Virus genome (UHGV): UHGV-2101173
DNA from: a virus
Length of the DNA stretch: 18,655 nt
Direction: 5' to 3' (one strand)
A program made the translations under genes and the position numbers. The notes under the pieces were generated by a model. That model was not told the origin of the DNA. It made no database searches and saw nothing but the letters and a program-made list of their open reading frames with translations. Positions within the stretch are counted from its first letter, which is position 1. Each line of letters starts with the position of its first letter. Shown piece after piece: positions 5,194 to 18,442 of the stretch.

Positions 5194-6162
5194 TTAGTAG
5201 GTTATTTTTGTTGCGAATACTTCGCCTTTTACGATGGCTGTTATGATATTTTTAGCAACATCTTCTGATGCGCCAACCTTGATAATGTCAGCAAGTATTT
5301 TGTTATTTACTTCTTTCCGGTGAGCTTTATCCTTTGCTCTACGCTCTTCTTCGTCCTTGATTCTTTTTTCTTCTGCTATTCTGGCTTGCTCTTTTGCTTC
5401 AGCCTCGCGCCGGATTCGTTCAGCCTCCTCCTGTGCTTTTCGGCGTTCTGCTTCAATTGCCGCCTGCTTTTCTCTTTCAGCTCGTTCTGCTGCCTCTTTT
5501 GCTTCGCGCTGTGCTCGTTGCTCGGCTTCAATGCGTTCACGCTCTGCACGTTCCGCTGCGGCCTTAGCTTCTGCTTCTCGCCTTGCTGCTGCTTCAATTT
5601 CGGCTTTTGCCTTTGCTTCGGCTTCTGCTCTGGCTTTCTCTTCAGCTTCTCTTTTTAAGCGTTCTTCATGCTCTCGCTTTTCCTGCTCCGCTTTGAGTCT
5701 TGCCTCTTCTCTTTGGCGGTCAAATTCGCGATCCATCAAAATCGCTATTTCATGGTCAGACTCAATTTGCTTTGCGAGAGCTTCAGCTGCTGCCTTAGCT
5801 TCTTCTTCGGCTTTAATCCGTGCCTGTTCCTCCTCATAATCAGTAAGAGGCTGGCGCGCCTTGGCTTTCAGTTCATCAAGGCGATCGCGCACTGTCTTGC
5901 GGTTAGCATCAATTAGCTTTGGAATTTCCTTCAGTTCAGCAACAAGGTCTTTGCCAAGACCATCGAGATATGTTTTCGTCTGCGCAACTTTATACGCCAG
6001 AGAAGCGATCTCCTTTCTGCCCTTTGCCGTTGTGATATCAGGCACAAAGGACATAACTTCACGTTCAACCTTTTGGAGAATTTCTTCAATCTGGTCGGCA
6101 GACTGAAATACAGTCATCGCATTTGCTTTTTCAATAACAACTAAATCTGTTACTTCACTCAT
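5194..6162 (-). CDS. Coiled-coil protein with a long Glu/Ala/Lys/Arg-rich helical tract (TolA domain II-like)
   Basis: ORF track 5194..6258; preferred start is ATG at 6162 preceded by SD GGAGGA. About 190 residues of EAK/ERA-type repeats flanked by short globular ends. The underlying DNA is repetitive. Confidence 0.65.
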   Translation of the reverse strand: MSEVTDLVVIEKANAMTVFQSADQIEEILQKVEREVMSFVPDITTAKGRKEIASLAYKVAQTKTYLDGLGKDLVAELKEIPKLIDANRKTVRDRLDELKAKARQPLTDYEEEQARIKAEEEAKAAAEALAKQIESDHEIAILMDREFDRQREEARLKAEQEKREHEERLKREAEEKARAEAEAKAKAEIEAAARREAEAKAAAERAERERIEAEQRAQREAKEAAERAEREKQAAIEAERRKAQEEAERIRREAEAKEQARIAEEKRIKDEEERRAKDKAHRKEVNNKILADIIKVGASEDVAKNIITAIVKGEVFATKITY

Positions 6163-6174
6163 ATATCCTCCATC

Positions 6175-6201
6175 AAAAAAAATCGCCCTCACACTGGAGG
6201 G
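6175..6201 (-). terminator. Weak intrinsic terminator-like element upstream of the coiled-coil gene
   Basis: 5-bp GC-rich stem (ccctc/gaggg, 6186..6201) followed on the minus strand by a U8 tract (plus A-run 6175..6182). Stem is short. Confidence 0.3.
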
Positions 6202-6453
6202 AAAAGAAGATTTCCAATAATCAGAACAAGTCGGCTCCTGTTTAGTTACGAGCGACATTGCTCACATAGCAGACTCGTAAATCTGCTATAGGCGCTTATT
6301 CGCATCGCATGACAACATCAAATTTTTCGAGATTACTTTGTCGCAACAATCCTTTTTCTACGCGGTCAGCTTTTCTATAATTATCAAATTAGAAATGTTT
6401 AATTACTTCTTTCGTTTCTCGCTCTATAACTTCAACAATGTATTTCTTATTCA

Positions 6454-6732
6454 TCATTCTTCCCCCAGAGCCTTGCTGATGGCTGCCTTGGCTCGTTTGT
6501 ATTCGGTTAACTCTCTGCACCCTTCGTCATGCTCGTAAATGAAGACAAGCTCTTGCAGTGCTTCAAGCAAATCAGGAGCTGCTGCTATCAGTAGCGCATC
6601 CTCCCTTTCATTTCTTGTTGCTGCTTCAATGTATGTGTCACCAATCGTCACACCATGGAACGTAGTCATCATCTCGTTGACGTTTCTAACCGTGTACTTC
6701 CATTTACCAGGCGTACCCTTAAACTCTTTCAT
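6454..6732 (-). CDS. Hypothetical protein (~92 aa)
   Basis: ORF track 6454..6738 (GTG); ATG at 6732 preceded by GAGGTG. Contains ...EDALLIAAAPDLLEALQELV..., a motif I recall from small prophage proteins. Confidence 0.5.
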   Translation of the reverse strand: MKEFKGTPGKWKYTVRNVNEMMTTFHGVTIGDTYIEAATRNEREDALLIAAAPDLLEALQELVFIYEHDEGCRELTEYKRAKAAISKALGEE

Positions 6733-6750
6733 ATCCACCTCTGTTGTTTA

Positions 6751-6780
6751 TGCCAAAAATAAAGGCCGACTATGCGGCCT
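6751..6780 (-). terminator. Intrinsic terminator downstream of the membrane-protein gene
   Basis: 6-bp GC stem aggccg/cggcct (6763..6780) with a 6-nt loop, followed on the minus strand by a T-rich run (plus 6751..6762 tgccaaaaataa). Confidence 0.45.
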
Positions 6781-6784
6781 GAAA

Positions 6785-7096
6785 TTACTTAACCAATGAT
6801 GCCGCATATTCAATTAGGAATAACTTAGGTGCAAGCCAAATCTTCAACCATTCGAAATTGAAGGCAATAATTAAAACACCCATAATTGAGCCAAATATAG
6901 GAACAAATACAGTGCATATATCGTAATAAACCGAAGATATAAAATGTTCATCATTTGGACGTCCATCGAAAGACGTCCATCTCTCGCCATTATTTCTTGC
7001 CGTTCTTGCAAAACTAGGAAGTTTAATTGCTGCAATTAAAAGCAACAATCCAGCCACTTGGAAAAGTGCGCTATGGACAAAACTCCATATTAGCAA
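6785..7096 (-). CDS. Small membrane protein, possible moron or superinfection-exclusion candidate; start codon unresolved
   Basis: ORF track; the track start at 7096 is a TTG. Hydrophobic stretches (FQVAGLLLLIAAIKL; VFVPIFGSIMGVLIIAF). Visibly AT-rich compared with neighbours. Followed by its own terminator. Confidence 0.45.
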   Translation of the reverse strand: MLIWSFVHSALFQVAGLLLLIAAIKLPSFARTARNNGERWTSFDGRPNDEHFISSVYYDICTVFVPIFGSIMGVLIIAFNFEWLKIWLAPKLFLIEYAASLVK

Positions 7097-7215
7097 CTGA
7101 TGAACAACATCAGGAATCTGTGCCTGGCTAAATGAAACAGCCGCGTCTATTCCATTGCTGGCTTTTTGCAGTAGTTCTACGAGAATCTTGTTTGCTTGTT
7201 CTTCTACATCTCACC

Positions 7216-7551
7216 TCAAATAAGTGGTTTGCTGCCTAATTTCATTTTTTGGCGACCAACACAAGTCACCCCCATTTCACTGCGTGGCTTGCGGTAGTAA
7301 ATACGGTTCTGTTTACGCTCGACTTCTTCTGCCTTCTTGCAGCGAAGGCTTCCGAGTGATGCTGCTTTTTCAGAAAGGCTTAAACGCTTTCTTGGGGCTT
7401 CCTGAACAGGTTCCTCACTGTCTGTGCCGAAGATCGAATCGATGATGTTGCATATAGCATCACGCTCGATAGCCAGCTTTCTGCGCCGCTCATGACGGCG
7501 AGTTTTGGCATTTCCTGCAAATGTTGATTTCCCGTACACGATTACCGTCAT
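7216..7551 (-). CDS. N: N-type transcription antiterminator
   Basis: ORF track 7216..7635 (GTG); preferred start ATG at 7551 with SD GAGGA. Arginine-rich motif GNAKTRRHERRRKLAIER near the N-terminus (P22 gene 24 type as recalled). C-terminus ...YYRKPRSEMGVTCVGRQKMKLGSKPLI resembles the lambda N C-terminus. Confidence 0.8.
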   Translation of the reverse strand: MTVIVYGKSTFAGNAKTRRHERRRKLAIERDAICNIIDSIFGTDSEEPVQEAPRKRLSLSEKAASLGSLRCKKAEEVERKQNRIYYRKPRSEMGVTCVGRQKMKLGSKPLI

Positions 7552-7670
7552 GATGTTTTCCTCATGTGAAATGGCTTTGGTGGTGATGCGCCAGATGCTG
7601 ATCTTCTGGTTGCTGTCGTTGCAGCTGCAATTCACATCACCGCCAAACCCATCTCGTTTGGTATCTGTTT

Positions 7671-7705
7671 GCGCTTTGTCAGCGCCCCATCGAAGTTAAA
7701 GAGCC
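7671..7705 (-). promoter_or_regulatory. nutL site (boxA + boxB)
   Basis: On the minus strand: boxA-like GCTCTTTAAC (plus 7695..7704), 9-nt spacer, boxB hairpin GCGCTGACAAAGCGC (plus 7671..7685), located between pL and N. Confidence 0.7.
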
Positions 7706-7743
7706 TGCCAATCTGTTCCGTTTGGCGTCCTGCTGATGGCTAA

Positions 7744-7772
7744 ATAGTACGATGTGTACTTTATTGAGTCAA
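7744..7772 (-). promoter_or_regulatory. pL promoter
   Basis: Minus-strand -35 TTGACT (plus 7767..7772), 17-nt spacer, -10 TACTAT (plus 7744..7749); overlapped by operator OL1. Confidence 0.55.
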
Positions 7773-7817
7773 TACAAAATGTTCTAAATGCGGTTAGTTT
7801 TTTATAACACTTTGTAT
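7747..7817. promoter_or_regulatory. OL operator cluster (candidate repressor sites)
   Basis: 13-mer GTACGATGTGTAC (7747..7759) is near-identical to the reverse complement of a site in the OR region; weaker related sites at about 7772..7784 and 7805..7817. Confidence 0.45.
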
Positions 7818-7836
7818 TTTATTGATTTATATTTTG

Positions 7837-7867
7837 GAAAAAGAAAACCCGACGCTAAGGTCGGGTT
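7837..7867 (-). terminator. Intrinsic terminator downstream of the repressor gene
   Basis: 8-bp stem aacccgac/gtcgggtt (7846..7867), loop gctaag; followed on the minus strand by ttctttttcc. Confidence 0.6.
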
Positions 7868-7897
7868 ATTGTTGTGTGTTTTAGAGTGGTGAGGCTG

Positions 7898-8551
7898 TTA
7901 ACTAAATGTCTCTTCAGGCCACTGGCTGGCGATAACTTTCCCTACTACGGAACAGCTATCATTGCATGGGATCATTGGATATTGCGGGTTTAGTGGTTGT
8001 AGGAACACCTGACCGCTATCCCTGATCAGTTTCTTGAAGGTAAACTCGTCACCACCAAGTCTGGCTATGCAGAAATCACCTGGCTCAACAGCCTGCTCAG
8101 GGTCAACGAGAATTAACATCCCGTCAGGAAAGCTTGGCTTGGATCCTGTTGGTGCGGTCATGGAATTACCTTCAACTTCAAGCCAAAACGCACAATCACT
8201 GGCTTTTTTGGTTGTGCTGACCCATCTCTCCGCATCGCCTTTGGTAAAGGTTCTAAGCTCAGGCGAGAACATCCCGGCCTGAACATGAGAAAAAACAGGG
8301 TACTCATATTGTTTTTTAACGGGGGCAGATGAGTATTCGCCAACAGGTGAAAATGTACCGTCGTGGTTGAATGAGACGTTATCAATACCAAGGTATTTAA
8401 ACACCACACCAATCTCGTCAAGAGATGGATGACGAGATCCGCGCAACCAGTGACCAATTCCACCCTGCGTCATACCAAGCTCTTCAGCTAACTTCTCTTG
8501 AGTTATGCCGAGCTCTTTCATTCTGGATCTAGCCAGTTCATACCATTTCAT
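7898..8551 (-). CDS. cI: CI-type prophage repressor: lambda-cI-like S24 peptidase C-terminal domain, distinct N-terminal HTH domain
   Basis: ORF track 7898..8632. C-terminal portion ([39 protein letters not shown]...GNSMTAPTG...[25 protein letters not shown]...) is near-identical to lambda cI as recalled, including the AG autocleavage site and Ser/Lys dyad. N-terminal HTH ([20 protein letters not shown]) differs from lambda. Start ambiguous (ATG at 8551 or 8557). Confidence 0.85.
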
Positions 8552-8613
8552 TTTCATACCCTTATTATTACGCTCTGTACTAAAACCATCCATGCACAAG
8601 ATGTATTTTTTGT

Positions 8614-8642
8614 TTGCATTCCAAAAGTACATATCGTATTAT
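8614..8642 (+). promoter_or_regulatory. pR promoter with overlapping OR1 operator
   Basis: -35 TTGCAT (8614..8619), 17-nt spacer, -10 TATTAT (8637..8642); operator-like 13-mer GTACATATCGTAT (8627..8639) overlaps the spacer and -10. Confidence 0.5.
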
Positions 8643-8668
8643 TGTTTCATGGTTACTATGGAGGGCAT

Positions 8669-8884
8669 ATGAGCAACCTACGAAAATATCGAGAGTCACT
8701 GAATATCTCTCAAACAACACTTGCTAAGGCGGTTGGATGCACACAGGGAGCTATCGGACATTGGGAATCTGGTCGTCGCTTCCCAGACCTTAAAACATGC
8801 CGTGCTCTTGTTGCGTGCCTAAACAAGTTAGGCGCAAAAGTCAGTCTTGATGACGTGTTCCCACCGGAACACAAAGCCGCTTAA
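8669..8884 (+). CDS. cro: Cro-like HTH repressor (71 aa)
   Basis: ATG at 8669 preceded by SD GGAGGG; HTH ISQTTLAKAVGCTQGAIGHWESG. The track ORF 8498..8884 extends upstream through the operator region, so the internal start is preferred. Divergent from cI across pRM/pR. Confidence 0.8.
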   Translation: MSNLRKYRESLNISQTTLAKAVGCTQGAIGHWESGRRFPDLKTCRALVACLNKLGAKVSLDDVFPPEHKAA

Positions 8885-8894
8885 TAAGCGGATC

Positions 8895-8929
8895 CGCTCT
8901 TTATCAATCTGCACCGCCGACAACGCGGT
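8895..8929 (+). promoter_or_regulatory. nutR site (boxA + boxB)
   Basis: boxA CGCTCTTTA (8895..8903), 9-nt spacer, boxB hairpin ACCGC-CGACAAC-GCGGT (8913..8929), immediately downstream of cro. Confidence 0.7.
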
Positions 8930-8993
8930 AACTAATTAATCACTCATCGAAAGATGAGTATTAGTGATTATTTACCTATGGAAATAGTAAGAA

Positions 8994-9290
8994 ATGGAAC
9001 AAACAAGTTACAGCAAACTATCACAGCGCGACGTTGATCGCGCTGAAACAGATTTACTCATCAACCTGTCAACGCTTACACAGCGCGGTCTGGCAAAGAT
9101 GATTGGCTGTCATGAATCGAAGATAAGCAGAACGGACTGGAGATTTATTGCTTCGGTCTTGTGTGCTTTCGGAATGGCATCAGACATCAGTCCGATTAGC
9201 AGGGCTTTTAAGTATGCGCTTGATGGAATCACAAAGAAAAAATCCCCGGTGGCCGCCGGGGACTCTAAGCAAATTGATATGCAATTCTGA
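8994..9290 (+). CDS. cII: CII-like transcriptional activator
   Basis: ORF track; position after cro/nutR; C-terminus ...ITKKKSPVAAGDSKQIDMQF parallels lambda CII ...TNKKRPAATERSEQIQMEF as recalled. Confidence 0.75.
   Translation: MEQTSYSKLSQRDVDRAETDLLINLSTLTQRGLAKMIGCHESKISRTDWRFIASVLCAFGMASDISPISRAFKYALDGITKKKSPVAAGDSKQIDMQF
9003..9016 (-). promoter_or_regulatory. Candidate CII-binding repeat (pRE -35 region)
   Basis: Minus-strand TTGC-N6-TTGT (reverse complement of plus acaagttacagcaa), overlapping the first codons of cII as in lambda pRE. Confidence 0.3.
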
Positions 9291-9311
9291 GGGAATTACT
9301 GGATCAATCCA
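9237..9311 (-). ncRNA. oop: OOP-like antisense RNA with pO promoter and intrinsic terminator
   Basis: Minus-strand terminator inside the cII 3' end: stem ccccgg/ccgggg (plus 9244..9261) followed by U6 (plus A-run 9237..9242). Candidate pO on the minus strand: -35 TTGAGT (plus 9343..9348), 17-nt spacer, -10 CATAAT (plus 9320..9325). The predicted 5' sequence TTGATCCAGTAAT resembles the lambda OOP 5' end as recalled. Confidence 0.6.
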
Positions 9312-9322
9312 CAGGAGTCATT

Positions 9323-10168
9323 ATGACAAATACAGCAAAAATACTCAACTTCGGCAGAGGTAACTTTGCCGAACAGGAGCTAAGAGTGGCTGATATCGAT
9401 GATGGTTACACCAGATTCGCTAACGAGCTGCTGGAAGCTATCGCAAGTGCCGATTTAACCGCTCGCCAGTTGAAAGTTATGCTGGCCTACGTCCGGAAAA
9501 CATATGGATTCAATAAGAAAACAGATCGAATAGCCGATGAGCAAATTGCTCAGTTAACAGGACTGTCAAGGCAGAATGTTAACAAGGCTAAAAAAGAACT
9601 GATTTCAATGAATTGCCTGTTTATGGATGGAAATAAAATCGGTGTAAACAGGGAGGTATCTGCGTGGCAATTCAGCAAGTGTCTCCAAGTTAGCAACTTT
9701 GTCTCGAAGTTAGAGACAAAAAATGTCTCCAAATTAGAGACACTCAATGTCTCGAAGTTAGAGACACACAAAAGACATTCTTTAAAGACAAAAGAAAATA
9801 TTAATAAACCCCCTATATCCCCCAAAAAAATTTCTCAGAAGTTCGACCCGCTAGAAACAGAGTTGCCTGATTGGTTATCGGCAGAAACATGGTTGTCGTG
9901 GGTTACCTATCGCAAGGAGATAGGTAAGTCGATCAAGTCTAAGCAAAGCGTCACTCAGGCTATCAACGTTCTAAGCAGAAGTCTGGAGAAGGGATATACA
10001 CCTGAAGAAATTATAAACCAGAGCATCGCCAGTGGTTGGCAGGGGATTTTTGAACCCAAGACTCCAAAGGGGAAATCTCAACCGAGGCCGCAGCAGCGAG
10101 CTATGCAGGAAAACTTTGCCGCCAAAGATTACGGGCAAACTGAAATGCCTTCATGGGCGCAGGAGTGA
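9323..10168 (+). CDS. O: Replication initiator O (lambda O-like N-terminal domain)
   Basis: ORF track; N-terminus MTNTAKILNFGRGNFAEQELRVADIDDGY... closely matches lambda O as recalled; contains the ori iterons and AT-rich segment. Confidence 0.9.
   Translation: MTNTAKILNFGRGNFAEQELRVADIDDGYTRFANELLEAIASADLTARQLKVMLAYVRKTYGFNKKTDRIADEQIAQLTGLSRQNVNKAKKELISMNCLFMDGNKIGVNREVSAWQFSKCLQVSNFVSKLETKNVSKLETLNVSKLETHKRHSLKTKENINKPPISPKKISQKFDPLETELPDWLSAETWLSWVTYRKEIGKSIKSKQSVTQAINVLSRSLEKGYTPEEIINQSIASGWQGIFEPKTPKGKSQPRPQQRAMQENFAAKDYGQTEMPSWAQE
9681..9766. repeat. Origin iterons (four ~18-bp palindromic repeats at ~24-bp spacing) inside O
   Basis: Repeats of GTCTC(C/G)AA(G/A)TTAGAGACA starting at 9681 (degenerate), 9701, 9725, 9749; followed by an A/T-rich segment at 9767..9830. 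Confidence 0.8.
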
Positions 10169-10170
10169 AC

Positions 10171-11016
10171 ATGACGCTGGATGAAAAGATCTCCCAACTG
10201 GAGAAAAAACTTGCAGAATTGAGTTCTCCGCCAATTGCTATCGAGCATACAGCTGTAGAAATTGGCACTGGCATCTGTGAAAAACATGGTGAGTTTGAGC
10301 AGCGTAACCGTTACTCGACTGGGCCAATTAAGTTTGCCTCAAGACCTAGCGAATGCCCGGAATGCATGAGAGATGAGCTTATTCGGCTACAGGCAGAGAA
10401 GATTAAAATCGACGAAGAATCACGTAAGCGCAATGTCGAGTTTCTGTTGAATAATCTTGATATTCCTGAACGATTCAAGGGTTGCACACTACAGAACTAC
10501 GAGCCAGTCAACGACGATGCAAAGAGAGTGCTCAGGGTGTGTCAGGCATACGCCAGCAAATGGCCTGAGAGGTTACAGAAAGGCGGTGGGCTGGTTATGT
10601 GCGGAAAGCCTGGTACTGGAAAGAATCATCTTGCACTGGCTATCGCCCGGCACGCAATTACGGAACATCAAAGCTCAGCTATTTTCACAACGGCGCTGAA
10701 AATTGCCAGAGAATATAAATCAACATGGTCTAAAAACTCCACCCGCACAGAGGATGAAGTGATCCGACAGTTCACTAAACCTGACCTGCTAATTATCGAT
10801 GAGGTTGGTGTGCAGTTTGGAAGCGAGGCGGAAAAGATGATCATGTTCGAAATCATCAACACCCGCTACGAGTGCATGAAGCCAACAATCCTGATTAGCA
10901 ACCAGAGCAAAGATGAACTGTCTGCATTCATTGGTGAGCGTGTTATTGACAGGATGAATGATGGCGGCGGGTGCACTCTTGCGTTTACATGGGATAGTTA
11001 CAGGAGCAGATCGTGA
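10171..11016 (+). CDS. DnaC-type helicase loader (AAA+ ATPase) in the position of lambda P
   Basis: ORF track 10153..11016; preferred start ATG at 10171 after SD AGGAG. Walker A GKPGTGKN, Walker B LLIIDEVG; N-terminal Cys/His cluster (CEKHGEF...CPEC). Confidence 0.85.
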   Translation: MTLDEKISQLEKKLAELSSPPIAIEHTAVEIGTGICEKHGEFEQRNRYSTGPIKFASRPSECPECMRDELIRLQAEKIKIDEESRKRNVEFLLNNLDIPERFKGCTLQNYEPVNDDAKRVLRVCQAYASKWPERLQKGGGLVMCGKPGTGKNHLALAIARHAITEHQSSAIFTTALKIAREYKSTWSKNSTRTEDEVIRQFTKPDLLIIDEVGVQFGSEAEKMIMFEIINTRYECMKPTILISNQSKDELSAFIGERVIDRMNDGGGCTLAFTWDSYRSRS

Positions 11017-12915: not shown

Positions 12916-13084
12916 CCCATCCCAATCCCTTCAATACCAGAAAGAAAGCGTCGAGCGAGCTTTAACGTGCGCTAACTGCGGTCAGAAGCTGCATGTGCTG
13001 GAAGTTCACATGTGTGAGCACTGCTGCGCAGAACTGATGAGCGATCCGAATAGCTCAATGTACGAGGAAGAAGACGATGAATGA
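12908..13084 (+). CDS. ninF: NinF
   Basis: Hand-translated 58 aa, below track threshold: [58 protein letters not shown]; matches lambda NinF as recalled. Confidence 0.75.
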   Translation: MLSPSQSLQYQKESVERALTCANCGQKLHVLEVHMCEHCCAELMSDPNSSMYEEEDDE

Positions 13085-13799
13085 GTTAATAAATGGCAAT
13101 GCCATCAAAATGACAAGCATTGAAATCGCTGAGTTGGTGGGTAAGCGTCATGACAATGTGAAACGTACCATCGAAACGCTGGCTAAAAATGGTGTTATCC
13201 GGCTTCCTCAAATTGAGGTTTCCGAAAGAATCAATAACTTAGGGTTCAATGTTCAGTACGAGCATTACGTCTTCGAGGGCGAACAAGGTAAGCGAGACAG
13301 TATTGTCGTTGTAGCCCAGTTGTCGCCGGAATTCACGGCTCGCCTTGTTGACCGTTGGCGAGAGCTTGAAGAAGCTGCGGTTAATATCCCAAAAACGCTA
13401 CCAGAAGCGTTGCGCCTTGCTGCTGACCTTGCTGAGCAGAAAATGCAACTGGAAAACCAGCTCGCAATTGCCGCACCTAAAGTTGAGTTTGCCGATCGCG
13501 TTGGCGAGGCCAGCGGAATTTTGATTGGAAACTTTGCAAAGGTTGTTGGAATTGGTCCAAACAAACTGTTTGCGTGGATGCGCGATCACAAAATCCTTAT
13601 TGCTTCAGGTTCCCGGCGCAATGTGCCAATGCAGGAATATATGGATCGCGGCTATTTCACAGTGAAAGAAACAGCGTTCAACACAAATCACGGAATACAG
13701 ATATCGTTCACCACAAAAATCACCGGGCGTGGTCAACAGTGGCTGACCAGAAGGCTGCTCTATAGCGGAATGCTGAAAGTAACAGGGGAGGCTGCTTAA
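13077..13799 (+). CDS. Antirepressor-like protein (N-terminal Rha/AntA-like domain + C-terminal KilAC/ANT domain)
   Basis: ORF track; N-terminus ...MTSIEIAELVGKRHDNVKRTIETL...; C-terminus ...FAKVVGIGPNKLFAWMRDHKILIASGSRRNVPMQEYMDRGYFTVKE typical of phage ANT domains. Confidence 0.7.
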   Translation: MNELINGNAIKMTSIEIAELVGKRHDNVKRTIETLAKNGVIRLPQIEVSERINNLGFNVQYEHYVFEGEQGKRDSIVVVAQLSPEFTARLVDRWRELEEAAVNIPKTLPEALRLAADLAEQKMQLENQLAIAAPKVEFADRVGEASGILIGNFAKVVGIGPNKLFAWMRDHKILIASGSRRNVPMQEYMDRGYFTVKETAFNTNHGIQISFTTKITGRGQQWLTRRLLYSGMLKVTGEAA

Positions 13800-15253: not shown

Positions 15254-15295
15254 CGGCATGATTGCCACGGATGGCAACATATTAACGACATGATA

Positions 15296-15324
15296 TTGAC
15301 TTTTTGAATAAAGTTGGGTAAATT
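15296..15324 (+). promoter_or_regulatory. pR' late promoter (with adjacent qut region)
   Basis: -35 TTGACT (15296..15301), 17-nt spacer, -10 TAAATT (15319..15324), followed by tgactcAACGAT as in lambda pR'/qut. Confidence 0.75.
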
Positions 15325-15359
15325 TGACTCAACGATGGATAAATGCACTCGTTAAATAA

Positions 15360-15388
15360 AGCCCTGAGTTAATAGCTCGGGGCTTTTT
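15360..15388 (+). terminator. tR'-like intrinsic terminator about 57 nt downstream of the pR' start
   Basis: 9-bp stem (one G-U) agccctgag/ctcggggct with 7-nt loop, followed by TTTTT (15384..15388). Confidence 0.7.
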
Positions 15389-16363
15389 GCGTTTGCACAA
15401 CAGGTAAGAGCATTCTCCCTTATGGGGCTTGGCTTAAATGCACCGAGTGCTCTTATCGTTGTGGCAGCACAACGATAGTTTTCGTCAGAGTTGGCGACTT
15501 TGCGGGTTTTTAGAAACTGACCACAAAGATAAATGCAAACGATGATTTGATGTTGATGGCGGCCTAAGAAACCAAAGTCACGGGGTCTTCCGATTCCCCG
15601 CTACCAAATTCGGCGCAGTGGCCCGCTGTGATTAATAATGGGCACCCAATAATGAGAGCGTTGGACAGTGGCGATGAGATTTCGCAACCCAGGAGCCAAT
15701 AGATCGGGGATAGTGCGCATAATACCGATTGAGGTGAGTGCTGGAATAAGCATCGGGAGTCATGACCCAACATGATGCGGGAAAGCCAGCCACCGAGAGA
15801 CCCGGCAGGGTAAACCGGCCTTCCGCTTGGTTATCAAGCAATAATAGCGCTCTCATTCGTGGGTAACAACGGGCATGTCGCCTTAGTAAATCCCTCAAGG
15901 GTGCGACGCATAGACCGGTACTAGCGTCGCCGTTAGCTCCACGAAACGGAGCGCACAACAGGTAAGAGTATTTGTAGAGTTCGACTCTCTACCGTGGGAT
16001 TTTTTCCGCGATGCGAGCCATAAATGCTCTTTCCGTTGTGCTGAATTAAGCGAATGCCGGAAGCAGAACCGGATCACCAAATGCGTACAGGCGTCATCGC
16101 CGCCCAGCAACAGCACAACCCAAACTTAGCCGTAGCCACTGGCTATCCTGAACTCATCAGTGATAGTTATGCTGCGGCCTTCTACGCATGACCTTCGTGA
16201 AAGCGGGTGGCAAGAGGCTGCGCTAACAACCTCCTGCCGTTTTGCCCGTGCATATCGGTCACGAACAAATCTGATTACTAAACACAGTAGCCTGGATTTG
16301 TTCTATCAGTAATCGACCTTATTCCTAATTAAATAGAGCAAATCCCCTTATTGGGGGTAAGAC

Positions 16364-17581: not shown

Positions 17582-17755
17582 TAGCGATAATTTTACTCAT
17601 CATCCTTCACATCTGGCTCTGTAGACAGGGTGGTGATCACTTCTGGAGTGAATCCAGATTAAACATCTCATTGCTGATGCTTGATATTGAGCATCTGGCG
17701 CGCGGTAAGGGGCTGCGTTGAGATAAGAGCCAGTTCATTACAAATACCAGGATTT

Positions 17756-17780
17756 AGCCTCGCATTCGCGGGGCTTTTTA
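17756..17780 (+). terminator. Intrinsic terminator-like hairpin downstream of Rz
   Basis: 8-bp stem (one G-U) agcctcgc/gcggggct with loop attc, followed by TTTTTA. Confidence 0.5.
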
Positions 17781-17923
17781 TATCTGAATTTCACAGCGCA
17801 TCTCACGCGCATATTAACGAGAGCCTTTCAGTAAGCGAGCCTGAGAAATGCCGTTATAGGTGGCGACCTCTCTCGGGCGGCTTTTCTGTGAGACAGGCTC
17901 ACTTTCTAAAAGGTAAAGACGCT

Positions 17924-18442
17924 ATGAATCATCAATTGGCTAATCTCGATTTCCGGGACATGGTGGTTGTTTCTGGTGATCGCGTGATCACAACCTCCCG
18001 CAAGGTAGCAGCTTACTTCGACAAGCAGCATCACCACATCATTCAGAAAATCGAAAAGCTAGACTGTTCGGATGAATTTCTAACCAGCAACTTTTCGCGG
18101 GTTACCTATGAACACAAGGGTAATCAGTATGTTGAATATGAAATTTCCAAAGACGGCGCTATGTACATCATCATGTCGTTTACCGGCAAAAAAGCTGCCG
18201 CCATCAAAGAGGCGTTTATCAAAGCATTTAATTGGATGCGTGACAGGCTGATGGAGATGGCTCACTCATACCAAAGAGAGCACAACGAGTTAATGCTGGA
18301 GTTCATGAAGGAAAAGGATGTTGCCAGTATGTCAGGACGCTTGCTGAACCGCTGGGGCAGGATCAAAAAACCGCAACTCATAGCAAGAATCAAAATGCTT
18401 GAGCAGCAGGCGCAAATATCGATCCCCGGACTGCCAAAGTGA
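17924..18442 (+). CDS. Rha-family phage regulatory protein
   Basis: 3' part of track ORF 17681..18442; ATG at 17924. ...DMVVVSGDRVITTSRKVAAYFDKQHHHIIQKIEKL...YIIMSFTGKKAAAIKEAFIKAFNWM... fits the Phage_pRha pattern as recalled. Confidence 0.7.
   Translation: MNHQLANLDFRDMVVVSGDRVITTSRKVAAYFDKQHHHIIQKIEKLDCSDEFLTSNFSRVTYEHKGNQYVEYEISKDGAMYIIMSFTGKKAAAIKEAFIKAFNWMRDRLMEMAHSYQREHNELMLEFMKEKDVASMSGRLLNRWGRIKKPQLIARIKMLEQQAQISIPGLPK

Follow-up and report, generated by a model that had tools for sequence, protein, structure and literature searches.

An intact lambdoid immunity and early-control region, probably of the VT2-Sakai type, in virus genome UHGV-2101173

Which immunity type is encoded in the early-control region of the virus genome UHGV-2101173, and is its composition a combination seen here for the first time? 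The stretch of this genome that was analysed, referred to below as the window, comprises 18,655 nucleotides and shows the canonical lambdoid early-control layout across positions 7216-9290. A first-pass annotation had described this segment as a mosaic immunity region, in which a lambda cI-type C-terminal domain is joined to a different DNA-binding domain and accompanied by P22-type nut sites. On the basis of the identities observed at the sequence level, the domains present and the location and conservation of the sites, the segment can be assigned with high probability (roughly 90%) to the VT2-Sakai immunity type (cI2c/cro4), as an intact lambdoid region for immunity and early control. The description as a mosaic is correct, whereas the novelty it implied is not borne out: the type is established in VT2-Sakai, an Stx1-converting phage (Stx, Shiga toxin), Stx2-II and 2851 and was published in 2012. 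Furthermore, public sequences already contain the repressor architecture, the operators, cro and the hybrid N, as well as all of these elements together.

The assignment is readily apparent from the repressor and Cro, both of which have near-identical full-length counterparts of this type. Relative to the Stx1-converting phage AP005153, the cI protein is identical at 80 of 83 positions in the N-terminal domain and at 132 of 135 in the C-terminal domain (96-98% overall), and Cro matches the putative Cro of the same phage at all 71 of its 71 residues. More than 60 phage records carry the cI N-terminal domain with 96-100% identity, among them phi458, Louie, ev017, 2851, the PA series and Stx2-II. 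In the classification of Smith et al. (2012), the repressor corresponds to cI2c and the Cro protein to cro4, which occur in VT2-Sa, Stx2-II, 1717 and YYZ-2008 (PMC3430580); the same study reported a lambda-identical cI C-terminus attached to another N-terminus. Llarena et al. (2022) grouped the lambda-closest Stx-phage repressors, with 61% overall identity, as CI clade I (PMC8951638), and the joint transfer of cI and cro is a pattern documented for lambdoid phages (PMC9836094).

The cI protein consists of an HTH_3 (helix-turn-helix, HTH) N-terminal domain (residues 1-83) and a lambda-type, LexA-like S24 self-cleaving C-terminal domain (residues 84-219), in which the Ala94-Gly95 cleavage site and the catalytic Ser132/Lys175 dyad are present. 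Residues 84-218 are identical to lambda cI 102-236 at 133 of 135 positions, in agreement with the near-identity proposed in the first-pass annotation. At the DNA level, positions 7904-8308 are 94% identical to lambda, with 24 differences in 405 positions and only two amino-acid changes; the lambda homology ends at 8308, at codon 84, within the interdomain linker. Regarding the N-terminal domain, the alignment with lambda is confined to the HTH (12 of 29 residues identical), PDB entry 1lli is matched with E=0.003, and 15 of 50 residues agree with P22 c2. This domain, which had been called unrelated to that of lambda, is divergent, but it is better described as a distant HTH_3 homologue, of the same fold class and with another recognition surface.

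Six sites with the consensus A-TAC-N5-GTA-T were found, three lying between the divergent repressor and cro genes, as a multipartite OR, and three overlapping pL, the leftward early promoter. Neither the lambda N-terminal domain nor 17-bp operators of the TATCACCGC type, which would define the lambda immunity, are present. In the six-site alignment AC and GT are invariant, whereas the outer G/C of "GTAC" are not conserved. The two GTAC-N5-GTAC 13-mers initially put forward do exist, GTACGATGTGTAC at 7747-7759 forming the core of OL1 and GTACATATCGTAT at 8627-8639 that of OR1, but this motif is not the consensus; as GenBank annotates 17-mers, the choice between the terms 13-mer and 17-mer is one of definition. 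Perfect TAC-N5-GTA cores occur four times in the 18.6 kb, three of the four within the two 86-bp operator regions (Poisson P ~8e-6), and seven of the 51 one-mismatch cores fall in these regions versus 0.47 expected (P ~7e-7). The whole-window count of perfect cores alone is not significant (4 found, 1.45 expected; a count of 4 was reached in 15 of 200 shuffles); for the operators, only clustering and conservation are informative.

The conservation is evident from five carriers of the immunity region, in which the operator half-sites are retained, whereas variation is seen in the five central bases and in the spacers between operators. All six positions coincide with the 17-mers annotated as "putative operator" in AP005153; the differences between the window and the annotated sites fall in the central N5 and the flanks, and the AC...GT half-sites are invariant. 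The operator list published for VT2-Sakai also includes these six sites (PMC10742460, Table S1), and in the window they overlap the hexamers predicted for pL and pR. In the only binding data that the literature searched yielded, lambda CI bound the VT2-Sakai operators weakly (3.7-6.4 µM versus 0.2-3 µM at its own sites), which is consistent with heteroimmunity. A further candidate operator in the OR1-OR2 interval, a 5/6 match at 8619, was rejected on account of its overlap with OR1 and of the lack of conservation of this interval in other carriers. Downstream of pL a conserved leader is found, CATCAGCAGGACGC, which is common to lambda and P22.

The Cro protein shares 22 of 62 residues with the cI N-terminal domain, and the recognition helices of the two are nearly the same (TQGAIGHW in Cro and TQGGIGHW in cI), as expected of a cognate pair. 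The top solved structure for Cro (8669-8884) is PDB 28tn_A, a "lambda repressor-like protein" (E=4.5e-17, residues 1-69), so that a close structural template may already exist. Upstream of cI, a putative pRM -10 element read from the sequence lies 7 nt from the ATG at 8557, and the centre of OR2 is at about -43 relative to this promoter; the arrangement suggests a lambda-like pRM giving a leaderless mRNA.

The antitermination module flanking the cassette has a different affinity. Over residues 1-40, N is identical to P22 gp24 at 38 of 40 positions, including GNAKTRRHERRRKLAIERD, and the arginine-rich motif GNAKTRRHERRRKLAIER is an identical stretch; the P22-type motif named in the first-pass annotation is thereby confirmed. 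The C-terminal region of gp24 is lacking. Residues 60-111 instead match phage 21 N at 48 of 52 positions, lambda N at 25 of 52 and P22 at 11 of 52, and the DNA at 7196-7371 shares 95% identity with the imm21 region. The earlier view of a lambda-like N C-terminus holds as far as the lambda/21 family is concerned, although the type is specifically that of phage 21. N also matches lambda N in PDB 6gov. To judge from these similarities, N is a P22/21 hybrid with P22 RNA specificity, and not a full gp24 orthologue; about 87 phage records, most of them from Stx phages, contain this hybrid with ~94% identity. In both nut sites a boxA is followed by a boxB, and the GACAA pentaloop proposed earlier for each boxB is present. 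The nutL boxB is identical to that of P22 nutL, its fold having a stem of 5 bp and a GACAA loop, and the nutR boxB is likewise identical to its P22 counterpart, the segment 8895-8931 being 94.6% identical to P22 nutR.

Between cI and OL, rexA and rexB are absent: the cI stop codon is separated from OL3 by 78 bp, which contain an intrinsic terminator whose hairpin begins 30 nt after the stop and is followed by a U-run; the absence of rexAB and a terminator directly after cI had both been noted in the annotation. The segment 7840-7875 is 89% identical to lambda 35799-35834, located directly downstream of rexB, and the window therefore looks like a lambda immunity operon from which rexA-rexB are missing. 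In related phages the same slot is occupied by cargo: an NYN-domain protein in E212 (locus L005, 1510-2367), two genes with weak to moderate matches to the PADLOC candidate system PDC-M24A/B in PhiR57_1 (L006, 1149-2455), a 348-aa protein without a family match in phi458 (L007, 3686-4732) and a 173-aa open reading frame (ORF), also without a family match, in the Stx1 phage (L001, 1478-1999).

Colinearity with a single known phage, which the first-pass annotation had taken to be incompatible with its reading, is essentially what was found, in sequenced E. coli prophages. The prophage in NZ_CP182387 (strain Br_190_kylling) is colinear in a single piece with 7084-9330 at 97.6% identity, in the order N-nutL-OL-terminator-cI-OR-cro-nutR-cII. 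At least 80% of 7100-9400 is covered in 44 complete E. coli genomes, and isolated-phage records reaching this coverage were not found. The whole 18.6-kb window has no full match, the best cover being 61% among phages and 66% among E. coli genomes, as is usual for lambdoid mosaics. The cassette from OL to cro is joined to the P22-type N/nut system in the window and in the Br_190 prophage, to a GCTGAAAAGC-type N/nut system in the Stx1 phage, E212 and PhiR57_1, and to the lambda-type system in phi458. In these loci (L001, L004, L005, L006 and L007) nutL and nutR always match each other, and the similarity changes partner at boxA on both sides. The association of one immunity cassette with three N/nut systems is ordinary lambdoid mosaicism.

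It remains to weigh the readings that compete with the VT2-Sakai assignment. The sharp break at residue 84, the end of the lambda DNA homology at the same point and the 99% identity of the C-terminal domain would suit a fresh, previously unseen chimera between lambda cI and the DNA-binding domain of an unknown phage, endowed with a new immunity specificity. This origin is nevertheless extremely improbable, being refuted by full-length matches: the complete cI is 96-100% identical to the repressors of dozens of sequenced phages and was described in 2012. Moreover, a recent joint is difficult to reconcile with the pattern of substitution in the lambda-like part, since so many DNA differences with so few amino-acid changes indicate that the joint is old and under purifying selection. 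Equally hard to credit is homoimmunity with lambda. The C-terminal domain and the terminator are indeed lambda-like, but it is the N-terminal domain and the operators that determine specificity, and neither is that of lambda (12 of 29 residues within the HTH only; A-TAC-N5-GTA-T versus TATCACCGC-type sites); the affinity of lambda CI for VT2-Sakai operators, about 4-6 µM versus 0.2-3 µM on its own sites, points in the same direction. A decayed or cryptic prophage region, nonfunctional as proposed for VT2-Sakai with its premature stop in cI, is improbable, if less so than the two former readings. It would be in line with closest full-length matches that are prophages and not isolated phages, and with the stop codon noted by Smith et al. 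in VT2-Sa cI (PMC3430580). Conversely, N, cI, cro, cII, O and P all have intact ORFs that match their families over the full length, cI retains its cleavage and catalytic residues, and promoters, operators and nut sites are conserved; the same immunity region is furthermore carried by the plaque-forming isolates phi458, Louie, E212 and PhiR57_1.

Certain observations weigh against the VT2-Sakai reading itself. The exact combination of N and immunity region is found in prophages only and in no isolated-phage record. The cI start codon is ambiguous: among near-identical genes it is variously annotated within window positions 8521-8632, giving 231 aa (AP005153), 207 aa (PGAP, NZ_CP182387) or 219 aa (ATG at 8557, used here). 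The literature searched contained no footprint or electrophoretic mobility shift assay with the cognate repressor. Finally, the centre-to-centre operator spacing is 25/33 bp in OL and 33/26 bp in OR, versus ~24/20 and 24/23 bp in lambda, and lambda-like cooperativity between OR1 and OR2 is not assured with a spacing so unlike that of lambda. As the lambda cooperativity and dimerisation domain is nearly unchanged, there is an outside chance that the switch is wired differently, for example with OR2-OR3 pairing by default in place of OR1-OR2, or that mixed inactive dimers form with lambda-immunity repressors in polylysogens. Mixed dimers of this kind would imply cross-talk between formally heteroimmune prophages.

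Under the VT2-Sakai reading, and by analogy with lambda, cI dimers would bind the six operators through the phage-specific HTH domain and switch off both pL and pR, and cI would probably autoregulate from a leaderless pRM. Since the C-terminal domain is 99% identical to that of lambda, it is expected to support dimerisation, cooperativity between dimers and RecA-stimulated self-cleavage (at Ala94-Gly95, through Ser132/Lys175) as in lambda. Cro, with its nearly identical recognition helix, would bind the same operators in lytic growth. On either side of the cassette, the arginine-rich motif of N is predicted to recognise the P22-identical boxB hairpins of nutL and nutR, conferring P22-specificity antitermination, and the phage-21/lambda-type C-terminal half to engage RNA polymerase and Nus factors. 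The rexAB cargo slot is empty, the terminator alone being left. All functional properties considered here, that is, operator binding by repressor and Cro, superinfection immunity and its specificity, cooperativity and antitermination, are predictions from sequence. The coordinates of the individual features are collected in Table 1.

Table 1. Coordinates of the predicted genes and control elements in the immunity and early-control region (window positions)
Feature	Position	Strand	Basis and details
N antitermination gene, 111 aa	7216-7551	-	Pfam N_peptide E=1e-25
nutL	7671-7704	-	boxA GCTCTTTAA (7696-7704), boxB GCGCTGACAAAGCGC (7671-7685)
pL	7744-7772	-	-35 TTGACT (7767-7772), 17-nt spacer, -10 TACTAT (7744-7749); promoter scan
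OL1 / OL2 / OL3	7745-7761 / 7770-7786 / 7803-7819	.	consensus A-TAC-N5-GTA-T
Intrinsic terminator of cI transcript	7846-7867	-	terminator scan; fold -12.4 kcal/mol, z = -4.4; then U-run UUUUCUUUUU
cI repressor, 219 aa	7898-8557	-	Pfam HTH_3 (residues 11-58) and Peptidase_S24 (residues 87-209)
Putative pRM -10 TAATAA	8565-8570	-	read from sequence; 7 nt upstream of cI ATG 8557; overlaps OR3
OR3 / OR2 / OR1	8566-8582 / 8592-8608 / 8625-8641	.	consensus A-TAC-N5-GTA-T
pR	8614-8642	+	-35 TTGCAT (8614-8619), 17-nt spacer, -10 TATTAT (8637-8642); OR1 overlaps; promoter scan output read TTTGCA-18-TATTAT
cro, 71 aa	8669-8884	+	Pfam HTH_3 E=4e-12
nutR	8895-8929	+	boxA CGCTCTTTA (8895-8903), boxB ACCGCCGACAACGCGGT (8913-8929)
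Hairpin between nutR and cII, tR1 position	~8935-8965	+	fold -12.4 kcal/mol, z = -4.4
cII, 98 aa	8994-9290	+	Pfam Phage_CII E=2e-31

Two elements at the right end of the region deserve comment. The hairpin in the tR1 position has no strong U-run, and a terminator function is suggested by its position only. The cII protein is identical to that of the Stx1 phage at 91 of 98 positions, and the DNA at 8988-9516 shows 85% identity with the immunity region of phage 21.

Downstream of cII follow an O-like initiator (9323-10168) and a DnaC-like loader (10153-11016). Within the O-like gene, four iterons of the form TGTCTC-N6-GAGACA, mostly 24 bp apart, are located at 9677-9771 and presumably constitute the replication origin. 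The remainder of the window, comprising early-left, nin, Q and lysis segments, is of the ordinary lambdoid kind. On the minus strand, positions 5194-6258 encode a protein of 354 aa with a long coiled-coil repeat rich in Glu, Ala, Lys and Arg; similar genes elsewhere are annotated as "TolA" or "coiled-coil domain-containing". Its matches are confined to PHROGs of unknown function, and none was found in Pfam. Just downstream of N, at 6454-7096 of the same strand, lie two small ORFs, of 94 aa and a hydrophobic one of 103 aa, with matches only to PHROGs of unknown function and none in Pfam or PADLOC; in other lambdoid phages this position is occupied by sieB or ral-type genes. A 1.1-kb gap (15254-16363) between the Q-like antiterminator and the holin, in the pR'/tR' region, contains no convincing ORF, tRNA or Rfam match; in Stx phages this is the location of tRNAs and stx. 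Scans of the whole window with Rfam gathering thresholds and for tRNAs likewise gave no matches. Two genes of antirepressor families are present, one Ant/Roi-like in the nin region (13077-13799) and one Rha-like after the lysis genes (17681-18442), and they could modulate repression independently of RecA.

In practical terms, the immunity type predicts that a lysogen would exclude phages of the VT2-Sakai, 2851 and phi458 type, but not lambda or P22, and the N/nut type predicts which antiterminator functions at these nut sites. The medical relevance of the immunity type derives from the Stx phages that share it; no toxin genes are seen in the 18,655-nt window. The cargo slot is empty here, where relatives hold candidate defence genes. 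As one cassette bounded by boxA on both sides and combined with three internally matched N/nut systems, the region offers a clean teaching example of lambdoid modularity. Beyond its correct annotation it is of little further value: the lysis/lysogeny control of this lambda-like E. coli phage is built from familiar interchangeable modules, and the mosaic is real but ordinary.

Among known systems, the phages VT2-Sakai, AP005153, Stx2-II and 2851 (Stx-phage CI clade I) have six operators in the same order and spacing as the window and the same gene order, whereas they differ in carrying another N with GCTGAAAAGC-type boxB sites and cargo genes between cI and OL; the DNA identity is ~90-93%. The prophages of NZ_CP182387 and E. 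coli W, colinear with the window from N to cII, are distinguished from it by their flanking early-left and replication genes, with a replicative helicase versus the DnaC-like loader.

Set against the classical phages, the region is a patchwork. To lambda it owes, by resemblance, the cI C-terminal domain, including the Ala-Gly site and the Ser/Lys dyad, and the post-rexB terminator, and it also agrees with lambda in the tripartite OL/OR layout and in an OR2 near -43 of the putative leaderless pRM. In the cI N-terminal domain, only the generic HTH_3 fold is common to the two, the operators differ in sequence and spacing, and Cro is an HTH_3 protein here versus the lambda Cro fold in lambda. The N arginine-rich motif and both boxB elements are P22-like: N residues 1-40 correspond to P22, neither boxB hairpin differs from its P22 counterpart, and the boxA-spacer regions are almost the same. 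In contrast, the C-terminal half of N diverges from P22 (11/52), and the P22 c2/cro/operator set is absent from the window. The N C-terminus and cII are, in turn, of phage 21 type, with agreement over N residues 60-111 and 85% DNA identity from cII to the start of O, whereas phage 21 has other immunity genes, another boxB specificity and a different arginine-rich motif in N (13/40 over residues 1-40).

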